From assembly GCA_951406725.2 (NCBI GenBank), contig OX597816.1:103664001-103728000 (forward strand): 64,000 bases of DNA, written 5' to 3'. Source of the stretch: Octopus vulgaris. Its lineage: Eukaryota. This document shows, in pieces, positions 25,113 through 31,683 of the stretch (within the stretch, counting starts at the first letter, position 1; each line of letters begins with the position of its first letter). Below the pieces are notes generated by a model. That model saw only the letters and a program-made list of their open reading frames with translations, had not been told where the DNA came from and ran no database searches. The position numbers were made by a program, and so were the translations under genes.

Positions 25113-26274
25113 TTTGTCAGACAGTCCATTTGCTTTCAACACCCGTTGCATGGAGGACTGGGCATGCCGTGGCTGGTGATGTGCAGACATGTGCTGAAAC
25201 TGCGACATCTCCAGCAATACCTTAACAGTGAGCAGGTGTGGTTGTCATTTGTTGAACATACTTTTCCACAGCTTGTCTTCTTGACAGAGCTACAGTCCTA
25301 GATCAGTCATAGACTGAGGCAGGGTGCTTGGCACCTAGAGTGTCTCCAAGTGCTCACAGCCCTCAGCCAGTCGGGCAATGTGGTCGGTGGAAGTTCCACC
25401 TTGGAGTTCTATACAAAATTAGTGAAAGGCAAGAACGTCAGTGTACTCTGAGAGGTTCTGGACATTGAGGAGGATCAACTAACTGGTCTCTTCTGGAGGA
25501 CTTTCAGGCCAGGAACTATGGATAACTTCCAGAGATCCCTGGCCTAGCAGTGCTACTGGGGGGCACTGCTGGTTTAAGACAAGCTCTACAGGCATGGGTG
25601 TGCAGTCAGTCAGGTTTATCTGAGATGCATGCAGAGCAATGAAACCATTCTGCATGCTCTCATACAGTGCCCATACATTGCTGACTTGTTGAGCTTCATC
25701 GAACAGTTATTCTCACACATAGGAAAGATCTCATTATCGTCCGAGTCCATTGTGAAGATTGCCCCACTTCCTTCCTTTGGCTGGGAAGGGAGGGCAATTT
25801 TTCTCTGTCTGGTGGCTATGGCAAAGGAGGTTGTATGGTGGATGTAATTGAACAGGCTAAAGACAAGTACCTTCCTCTTTGGCCAAGGCCTCATTAATTT
25901 TTTTTCAGGTTCCATTTGAAAAGGAAAGTGAGGTTGGAGAGGGAGGTACTGTCATCCAATAAGTTCATTGAAATGTGGGTGAATGTGACAAGAATGGCCT
26001 GCGTGAGTCGGCCTACTCTAAGTGTGTGCCTGAAGGCTAAAAGGAAAGAAGAAAGAATGCCTTCCTAAGAAGCTGTTGGTGTTAAGTGTCCAAAGTGCTT
26101 AAGGTCTCTTTGGGCTTCTTACAGTGGAACTCCCTCCTATTTGGAAGCATATTATTAATTTAATCTCTTTGTTAATTGTTGTGTTTGTTGTCTGTTTACA
26201 CGTTTAACCTCACTGTCCCTTGTCTGTGTATCATCCTCTATGTTTTGTGTTTGACCCCGGTGGCCAATAAAGAA
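25113..26274 (+). mobile_element. 5'-truncated Tx1/L1-clade LINE 3' end (post-RT region, CCHC finger, 3' UTR)
   Basis: VRQSICFQHPLHGGLGMPWLVMCRHVLKLRHL; RCMQSNETILHALIQC zinc knuckle; FHLKRKVRLEREVLS. 3' UTR ends ccccggtggccAATAAAgaa followed by (TTA)n. Confidence 0.8.
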
Positions 26275-26336: not shown

Positions 26337-27138
26337 TTTTTTTTTTTTTTTTTTTCTGTTTTCAAATTTGCTTCCATTTCTTGCCGAGTGTCTTCCCGAC
26401 TCCTAGGGCAAAGAAACTCATAGTATACATTGATAGGCCATTAAACTAAACTCAATAGTTCGTTCATTTTTTTTTTTTTTTTAGTTAAATTAAAATACAT
26501 GGGTAGTAGTAGTTCTCACATCGACAATACTCTTCTCAATACGTGTGATGTACCAGTTAAGACAATCTTTTGCACTTCTTGCAGGGATGGTAAGCCAGGG
26601 ATCATTCTCATATAATTTTCGGTCCCCTTCTTGATCATTCCTAGTGCTCCTACGATCACTGGTATTGTAACCGCCTTGAGATGCCACATTTTCTCAATTT
26701 CAATGAGTAGGTCTTTATATTTTCTGAGCTTGTCAAACTCTTTCGCCGAGATATTATGATCACAGGGGATGCTCATGTCGATCAATAAGCAAACTTTATT
26801 GTTTTGGTCTTTCACAACAATATCTGGTTTATTGGCTTTGATGGTTCGGTCTGTATGTACTGGAAAGTCCCACAGAATCGTTACATTTTCTCCTTCAGTT
26901 ACAGCCTCAGGGTGGTGATTATACCACTTGTCGGCAGTTTTGATATTGTAATGCCGACTTATTAGCCAGTGTAGATATTGGCCAACTCTGTCATGTCTTA
27001 ATTTATACTCCACTGGTGCTAAGACTTTACATCCAGAGATTACGTGGTCCACTGTTTCAATCATGTCATTGCAGAATCGGCATTTTGGGTCTGCTCCATT
27101 TTTCATTACATTGGCCTGGTAGTTCCGGGTTAATAGGC

Positions 27139-27141
<3 letters not shown>
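26335..27141 (-). mobile_element. Young 5'-truncated Dong/R4-clade retrotransposon: CCHC knuckle plus restriction-like endonuclease, 3' UTR, poly(A)
   Basis: Uninterrupted ~207-codon ORF end (26516-~27140): CRFC...ETVDHVISGC, RHD, KPDIVV...LLIDMSIP...K.RKYKDL, PVIVGALG. T21 tail at 26335-26355; (TTA)n on both sides. Confidence 0.92.
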
Positions 27142-27214
<73 letters not shown>

Positions 27215-27232
27215 AATAATAATAATTAGTTC

Positions 27233-27340
27233 ACAAGCTGGCGGAATCATTAGCATGCCTGACAAAATGCTTGGCAGCATTTTATTAATCTTAATGTTCT
27301 GACTTCAAATACCAACAGGATCCACTTTACTTTTCATCCT
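27233..27340 (+). mobile_element. SINE family B 5' fragment
   Basis: caagctggcggaatcattagcatgcctgacaaaatgcttgg...gttctgacttcaaat...cttttcatcct. Confidence 0.7.
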
Positions 27341-27447: not shown

Positions 27448-28154
27448 TATGTATGTATGTATGCCTGTTCCCTACAAGTTCCTTCAATTCAAATAATGAG
27501 AAAATTTTCCTATTCACCTAATAGCAATTTACTACTAAGAACTAAAAATCTTTAAAATCTATTCAACATGTTCTCAAAACCTAGCAGCTCTCTGCTGTAA
27601 AAAGATCCAATTGCTGTTTCATTCTTTTCAGACCCCTGTGTTTTCTTATCACTTTACTTTATCAATATCTGTAACACAACCTACTGCATTTATCAATAGT
27701 AAATGCTAGTGGTATTTGAAATCCATTTTACTGAAATTGTTTTATTTATTAGATCACATATTTAACACTTTGCTAATACTTTGTACTTCTGAATTATCTC
27801 CAGTTCACCACTCAGTTCTGATTGTGAGGTTTATCTAAGTAGCTGAGTGGTTTAGATACAGTTTGAAGAAATACAGTGTACAGAAAGTGATGCTTCTAAG
27901 TGTTTAAGCTAACACACTTGGAAAGTTGATGCATTTTCATTTTTTTTTTTAAGAAAATGTTAACACTTGTTACTGACAGTTAAAAGAAAAAAGTATGGAA
28001 GTAACTAACAGTCTTAAGAGCGAGAGAAGAGACTTCATGTGGTTGCTTGATTGAACTAGAAATAATAGCCAAATCTACCTCATCATATTAAATGAGAAAT
28101 AACACATGCAAAGTAACCAGTAGGGGAACAATTAATAATAAATGGAGGATATAT

Positions 28155-28426
28155 TTTATTTCTTTATTGCCCACAAGGGGCTAAACATAGAGGAGACAAA
28201 CGAGGACAGACAAAGGGATTAAGTCGATTACATCGACCCCAGTGCATAACTGGTACTTAATTTATCGACCCCCGAGAGGATGAAAGGCAAAGTCAACCTC
28301 GAGCAAAAGAGCAAAAGCTGGTTCGATCTCGATTTTCAGTACAAATACAGACCGCAAAAGCGTGGCCCATCAATCCTTCTGATCCTGACATGCTAACGTT
28401 TCTACCAGCTCGCCACCTTGGCGAGC
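28155..28426 (-). mobile_element. SINE family B chimeric copy (Tx1-like tail) with 12-bp TSD
   Basis: tggaggatatat at 28143-28154 and 28427-28438. SINE body at 28155-28301 and head at ~28387-28419, with a foreign insert between them. Confidence 0.85.
28301..28382 (+). pseudogene. 28S rRNA fragment (~82 nt, conserved 3' core region) inside a SINE
   Basis: gagcaaaagagcaaaagctggttcgatctcgattttcagtacaaatacagaccgcaaaagcgtggcccatcaatccttctga versus metazoan 28S as I recall it: GAGCAGAAGGGCAAAAGCTCGCTTGATCTTGATTTTCAGTACGAATACAGACCGTGAAAGCGGGGCCTCACGATCCTTCTGA. Confidence 0.88.
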
Positions 28427-29084
28427 TGGAGGATATATCTAATATGAACAACTAATGGAATGAGAACAGTCAATGCCATGGCTTTAATAAAAGGTTCAAT
28501 TTGAAATCCTAAGAACATTTCCGAATACTAGAGGCTCCTTGAAATGGCTGTGGAGTAAAATGATTGAAACGTTGTGACTATAACAAACAATATGAAGACA
28601 CTTGTCTGAATATGTTTGTATGTAATAATGATGATTCATCTCTCAAATGCTGACAAAATCTTGATTTTTCAATCTTTATGCATATACACATGTAACTACA
28701 TATATGCTTGCACACACACACACAAACACCACACACACACAAACATAATATAAAGGAAAACAGTAGGTGGGAATACCATATGATGTAGACAGTGTAAACT
28801 ATGGATGCACAGGAGGAGCTGTAGGATTCCAGGCTACCTGATGGAAGAAAAGGATTTTGTATATAACAAATTCAGCAGAGTAGTTGGAAGTATGAATGCC
28901 CTTAAAGTAAATTCTTTTGTTTTTTAGAGGCGGCTCTCTAAAAGTATTTGACAGCTTTTGATAAGTAGGTGACAAAATTAGCTGTGGAAGATGGTGTTCA
29001 GAATGCATAGTAACCCGAATGAAAATAGGGTTAGATAAAAGTTCAGATAACTATTATCTTTGCTGGTAATGAAGAGTTTCTCTG

Positions 29085-31456: not shown

Positions 31457-31683
31457 CATAATCATAATAATAATTATAATAATAATAATAATAATTCATT
31501 TCTTTATTGCTCACATGGGGCTAAACATAGAAAGGACAAACAAGGACAGATAAAGGGATTAAGTCGATTACATTGACCCCAGTGCATAACTGATACTTAT
31601 TTAATCGACCCCGAAAGGATGAAAGGCAAATCAACCTCGGCGGCATTTGAATTCAGAATGTAACAGCAGACGAAATACCACTA
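29889..31683 (-). mobile_element. Head-to-tail cluster of six SINE family B copies separated by (AAT)n/(GAY)n
   Basis: Copies at ~29889-30102, 30120-30316, 30735-30926, 31008-31208, 31241-31426 and 31498-31683 (last is 5'-truncated with a Tx1-like tail). Confidence 0.85.
30321..30718 (+). mobile_element. Non-autonomous Helitron (398 bp)
   Basis: A|TCtttatatataaaa 5' end; subterminal hairpin cccgagc-aat-gctggg (30691-30706); CTAG|T 3' end; A/T insertion with no TSD; internal ~100-bp tandem duplication (~30466-30665). Confidence 0.88.

Follow-up and report, generated by a model that had tools for sequence, protein, structure and literature searches.

An octopus SINE with 53 nt exchanged for antisense 28S rRNA, and a probable genomic record of the helix 88 break

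The window analysed here is a 64,000-nt stretch of Octopus vulgaris DNA (contig OX597816.1, positions 103,664,001 to 103,728,000). At 28143..28438 it contains a family A SINE that carries within it a fragment of host 28S rRNA in the opposite orientation, and a single 12-bp target-site duplication (TSD) encloses the entire SINE/28S unit. The parts are listed below, with 28S positions given relative (+/-) to an anchor at window position 28301.

28143..28154, no strand: left copy of the 12-bp TSD, 12-mer TGGAGGATATAT
28155..28301, minus strand: SINE (family A) body and tail, consensus nt 90-233, 94% to the consensus from intact copies
28299..28301, no strand: TCG microhomology, common to SINE and 28S at the left junction
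28299..28383, plus strand: host 28S rRNA fragment, -2 to about +83, assigned by Rfam RF02543, the host array and the break motif
28384..28419, minus strand: SINE head, consensus nt 1-36, with an A-box-like TGGCAGAA word in the consensus
28420..28429, plus strand: inverted copy of SINE head nt 6-15, consisting of 7 new nt and the TGG common to the duplication
28427..28438, no strand: right copy of the 12-bp TSD, 12-mer TGGAGGATATAT

The word TGGAGGATATAT occurs twice in the whole window, both times as a copy of the duplication, and a 12-bp duplication is expected by chance at about 5e-5 when 20x20 registers are allowed. Both SINE parts, body and head, are on the minus strand and follow the same linear order as in intact SINE copies. 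The earlier note had described a replacement rather than an insertion, and this is borne out, as 53 SINE nt are gone and about 85 nt of 28S stand in their place. The segment that it gave as about 60 nt is indeed absent, but measures 53 nt (consensus nt 37-89). Its claim that the B-box region is lost holds in that a B-box-like word, GTTCAAATTCC (nt 77-87), falls within the lost part, but not in the strict sense, since the strict B-box pattern fails even in the SINE consensus. The A-box-like word is retained at the locus and the B-box-like word is gone; no tRNA was detected in the SINE head by Rfam (1 intact copy) or ARAGORN (5 loci). Because the 53 nt lost include the B-box-like word, this SINE copy is probably dead. 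The 28S piece is internal to the SINE, with 36 nt of SINE head beyond it, and hence is not at the element's 5' end. Microhomology amounts to 3 nt (TCG) at the left junction and 0-1 nt at the right one, and the lost SINE part has weak or no homology to the insert (shuffle p 0.20 on the same strand and 0.049 on the opposite strand).

A feature absent from the earlier note is a fold-back at the right end, where 7 extra nt (28420-28426) create a 10-bp inverted repeat with the SINE 5' end. The first 8 nt of the fold-back piece (28420..28429) are identical to 28S +91..+98. The fold-back pattern, whose length was picked after the chimera locus had been seen, has 1 genomic match against roughly 1e5 recognisable SINE heads, a number extrapolated from 15 in 261 kb.

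That the insert is host 28S, antisense to the SINE, was confirmed by a plus-strand match to Rfam LSU_rRNA_eukarya (RF02543; 34.8 bits, E 2e-6), which stays under the 50-bit gathering score because the fragment is short, and by a match to the tandem rDNA array on G000:C20. This array carries 18S, 5.8S and 28S, and the insert is 90% identical to it over 83 nt, with differences that are mostly CpG decay. The SINE and 28S parts are of equal age in a comparison of little power: 5 of 11 CpG sites are deaminated in the 28S piece versus 5 of 12 in the SINE, and non-CpG differences number 3/63 and 9/158, respectively. The 3' end of the insert lies in the 5' strand of helix 88 (H88), about 18 nt before a reported break in this helix.

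The genome contains many other short copies of the same 28S region. A census with the central part of the insert (+28..+52) gave 86 genomic matches, all of which were retrieved; 65 dispersed copies remained when 20 long or array copies and 1 duplicate had been set aside. Six other rRNA motifs, searched under slightly different mismatch rules, gave 31, 35, 42, 48, 48, and 55 matches. The 3' ends of the 65 copies fall at 52-72 in 5 cases, at 73-85 in 32, at 86-101 in 6 and beyond in 22 (9 of the 65 ends were placed by hand from two alignments, and the 6 include three SINE-head fusions set by hand at 98, outside the peak). The end hazard is 0.050 per nt at +73..+85 versus 0.0057 elsewhere, about nine times the background, and the Poisson probability of this cluster is about 1e-19, for an interval picked after the data had been seen. 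The densest part of the cluster is at 80-83, the point past the basal stem at which the local fold opens. Expansion-segment drift was ruled out as the source of the cluster, because conserved rDNA does not resume downstream of the ends in any of the 36 copies checked. At the other side, 21 of 32 5' ends lie at -8..+20.

The dispersed copies have differing flanks, no common tail and no common lineage variants, and their divergence ranges from 0 to about 16%. Because the flanks differ and the variants are star-like CpG changes, the 28S pieces are independent captures, the same rRNA stretch having been taken up many times over. A mobile family was rejected as an explanation: most of the recurrent variants are CpG changes, and each non-CpG variant is confined to at most 3 of 31 copies. 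A non-repeat TSD of at least 10 bp was found in only 3 of 66 short copies, one of them in the hot-spot class, so that most captures do not resemble standard insertion. Many older copies (L026, L049, L058, L060, L080, L090, L092, and others) lack the same 3 nt of helix 88 (+83..+85), and this hints at a former rDNA variant close to the break.

The break is described in a 2026 preprint (Mitra et al. 2026, PMC13321053). According to its accessible text, helix 88 of 28S undergoes an octopus-specific cut at TATG/CGTC, which occurs in both egg and sperm, was mapped in O. bimaculoides as a single cut at G4322/C4323, is confined to incirrate octopuses and is tied to translation fidelity. The same TATG/CGTC motif is found in the source genome's own rDNA at +101/+102, which places the end cluster 16-28 nt upstream of the break. 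This shortfall, with only 6 of 65 ends at +86..+101, counts against a link to the break, as do the 22 of 65 short copies that cross it (all 20 long ones cross as well). Among 14 extra copies examined for the 5' end of the downstream fragment, one begins at 102 and four begin at 94-113.

At D7a, 26 of 37 dispersed copies end at 80-97, before an AU-rich gap, and 5 cross it (50 of 55 matches retrieved, 13 long ones set aside). We take the AU-rich segment to be the protostome hidden-break gap; some D7a copies continue a few bases into old variants of it. For 18S, 4 of 8 genuine ends coincide with the mature terminus (30 of 42 matches viewed, judged by eye). Separately, three 18S pieces (L181, L200, and L203) share one internal end, about 34 nt short of the mature 3' terminus. 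In a control region that lacks a free end, copies with unrelated flanks end anywhere between 32 and more than 500 (33 loci, by eye), and false end clusters at -74 and +272 result from expansion-segment drift.

Because the D7a and 18S controls behave alike and the ends are spread where there is no free end, the templates were likely mature, cut rRNA, and the genome probably holds a fossil record of the octopus H88 cut, a break mapped in O. bimaculoides. The template of the chimera was likely mature rRNA too, since its 3' end falls within the genome-wide hot spot. The earlier note had proposed a templated capture of rRNA or rDNA; templated capture is likely, and its source can be narrowed to what was probably mature rRNA. 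A broader proposition, to which we give slightly less than an even chance, is that the dispersed retrocopies amount to a fossil 3' RACE, with ends that would map every free mature-rRNA 3' end in the germ line, record the H88 break over the long term and imply an abundant, previously unreported 28S fragment of 70-90 nt whose end lies about 20 nt before the break. We found no open paper that ties rRNA retrocopy ends to hidden breaks, and in the main text of PMC13321053, the subject of which is ribosome function, the word 'pseudogene' occurs 0 times.

SINEs are joined to 28S pieces at other loci as well. The H88 set includes about ten sense fusions (L005, L027, L029, L041, L055, L063, L068, L070, L076, and L077), and the chimera locus is its sole antisense SINE/28S chimera; L026 is a later SINE insertion into a 28S fragment. 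The D7a set has 4 sense fusions, and 7 of its 37 copies are antisense head-to-head fusions with SINEs of families A and B (L145, L147, L148, L205, L207, L214, and L222). The view that antisense rRNA fusions are unusual is thus weakened for this genome, although it applies at H88. Two of the antisense D7a units have one duplication around SINE and rRNA together (L222, 16 bp; L147, 9 bp); a 16-bp repeat at L205 was discarded as a TSD because it is the SINE tail. Since 7 of 37 D7a copies are antisense, two of them with a single duplication, copying of rRNA on the second target strand during SINE insertion is likely to be recurrent in this genome.

The sense piece at L005:1502-1586 spans -2..+82, the same two ends as in the chimera, and is flanked by two family B SINEs, with the tail of one on one side and the head of the other on the opposite side. 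The longest exact word that the SINE head has in common with the complete 28S measures 10 nt (+89..+98; gapped extension p 0.01) and stops three bases short of the break; in three sense fusions the joint lies at this word or just ahead of it. Nested SINE insertions start at nt 50-53 in 12 of 39 young matches. Family A SINEs are stacked at head nt 50-53 at L029, L030, L147, L151, L190, L211, and L217 and at 31491-31639 of the window, and their tail end is similar to the target.

Followed along the minus strand from the right duplication, the locus consists of 7 nt complementary to the SINE RNA after a 3-nt pairing, 36 nt of SINE head, the 28S complement starting from its hot-spot end, TCG, and the SINE body. 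One run of second-strand synthesis with template jumps accounts for this whole order. According to the accessible text of PMC6895275, LINE reverse transcriptases need no homology to jump between templates and copy RNA as well as DNA. We consider it an even bet that the SINE within its 12-bp TSD, with 53 nt swapped for 85 nt of antisense 28S, arose in one insertion event, in which the reverse transcriptase on the second target strand jumped to a free 28S 3' end that probably stems from the octopus H88 break. The target end would have paired by 3 nt with the SINE and copied 7 nt, giving the inverted piece; 36 nt of SINE cDNA would then have been copied. With 0-1 nt of homology the enzyme would have jumped to the 28S end at about +83 and copied 85 nt, and it would have returned to the cDNA at TCG, with the loss of 53 nt. 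The tail of the cut rRNA may have been tethered to the end of the finished cDNA by the 10-nt word, and the 16-28 nt offset could reflect a loose tail trimmed back toward the basal stem. The need for four template hops counts against the single-event model, as does the scarcity of TSDs among the short copies.

The main alternative, itself unlikely, is that an intact SINE inserted and was cut soon afterwards, possibly by a SINE-targeting retrotransposon endonuclease at nt 52/53; repair of the cut would then have used the same 28S RNA fragment as its template and lost 53 nt. The site of nested insertion, nt 50-53, lies inside the lost segment (nt 37-89) and fits such a later cut, although the junctions are 16 and 37 nt away from it. 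Internal replacements in another SINE family (24 and 32 nt lost, at L027 and L077), a 28S piece joined at SINE nt ~50 at L055 and the absence of TSDs from most copies also fit a later repair. However, the genome-unique fold-back would be a second coincidence, and the SINE and 28S are equal in age, albeit in the low-power comparison above.

We hold it to be more doubtful still that the hot spot is real but independent of the break, arising by internal priming on intact 28S or pre-rRNA, in which a stretch at about +80..+88 is A/U-rich and unpaired. The opening of the local fold at the peak of the ends speaks for this, as does PMC5322556, which in its accessible text favours such priming at single-stranded regions, and the offset from the break lacks an explanation. 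However, the other two pile-ups of ends are at known mature ends, and the ends are spread (by eye) in the region without a free end. Moreover, at known targets (the chimera locus, L005, and L077; by eye) the junctions have only 0-2 nt of microhomology, and the 5' ends concentrated at -8..+20 are as expected from a discrete fragment.

Copying of the piece from rDNA by DNA-templated repair is very improbable: it would leave orientation unconstrained, and many dispersed rDNA pieces and whole relocated units are present, but the end lies within an RNA-type hot spot, and at the background hazard an end in those 13 nt has a chance of about 7%.

The earlier note had also raised a new composite SINE subfamily. 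This was ruled out, because each junction pattern, with CpG decay allowed, has a single match in the 2.8-Gb genome. A contig of the independent run X1 covers 28324-28416 with 0 differences and bridges the right junction, and in its left flank shows two indels relative to the window. Contigs of X2, X6, X7, and X8 have a hole over 28307-28383 at 98% likeness; the hole is uninformative, because X6, from the same sample as X1, shows it too. That the locus is a new subfamily or an assembly chimera is hardly credible: the left junction lacks an independent contig and four runs have the hole, but the junctions are single-copy in the genome, the X1 contig is free of differences and the insert is CpG-decayed to the same degree as its SINE.

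Chimeric insertions of 28S, 5S, or tRNA with LINE-1 have been described (bioRxiv 10.1101/2025.02.02.635956). As far as the accessible text of that work goes, they resemble the octopus locus in combining an rRNA fragment and a retroelement in one insertion, in their recurrent breakpoints and in the presence of antisense cases, those with 5S, tRNA, and U5 in primates being attributed to twin priming. In contrast, the RNA there lies at the LINE-1 5' end and 83% of the 28S pieces are sense, whereas in octopus the 28S lies inside a SINE with the head beyond it, in an invertebrate, with a breakpoint beside an rRNA break specific to the lineage. Tailless retropseudogenes (Noll et al. 2015, PMC5322556) share with the octopus copies the lack of poly(A) and a defined 3' truncation in single-stranded regions. 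In the text available they are therian, L1-driven, TSD-flanked and internally primed, with only ten 28S cases, and their targets have 2-18 nt complementary to the RNA; in octopus TSDs are rare, the ends follow mature rRNA ends and, at known SINE targets, 0-2 nt are shared. SINE28 (Longo et al. 2015, PMC4994717), given as the 28S-bearing SINE in the accessible part of PMC10946416, likewise comprises dispersed short 28S copies with a bias to one region, repeatedly re-derived from rRNA. According to the same limited text, however, SINE28 derives from the 28S 3' end and has a simple-repeat tail, a TSD and Pol III transcription, whereas the octopus copies are internal and tailless, give no sign of propagation and end about 540 nt before the Rfam 3' end. 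The paper on the H88 break, in its accessible text, maps the cut without a shortened end, and the fossil ends found here are shorter.

The chimera alone is a dead single-copy curiosity, and the pattern behind it matters more. If the reading is true, the H88 break has left dozens of datable DNA copies, and its age and distribution would be testable from assemblies, including those of rare cirrate and deep-sea species without usable RNA. More generally, genome assemblies by themselves could then suffice to detect and date rRNA breaks. Given the offset, a trimmed end or a small rRNA fragment is predicted, which can be searched for directly. The chimera and the seven antisense D7a fusions would be natural examples, from the SINEs of an invertebrate, of second-strand priming on rRNA.

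The RGS host gene of the earlier note, in whose pre-mRNA the 28S piece would be sense, was not confirmed. The RGS domain (PF00615) has 11 matches in the genome and 0 in the window, and a Pfam search of 145 of the 477 open frames in the window, in which short exons could be missed, gave nothing over the cut-off. Weak zf-RVT matches below the cut-off at 26519-27304 (minus strand) and 25578-25844 (plus strand), 1-3 kb upstream of the chimera, are probably decayed LINE pieces. The 18S gene at L037:6524-9164 spans about 2640 nt, far above the 1831 positions of the Rfam model, and the L037 spacer downstream of 28S contains degenerate 28S-like repeats. Dispersed rDNA units at L033 (G000:C2:103397000-103406900), L034, and L039 are interrupted in 28S, at the classic R2 site, by a 4.6-kb insertion with one frame that encodes a reverse transcriptase domain (RVT_1, E 1.5e-21). 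At the same site, L035, L036, and L040 have an element of 1.75-1.95 kb without long frames, which in L040 occurs without upstream rDNA.
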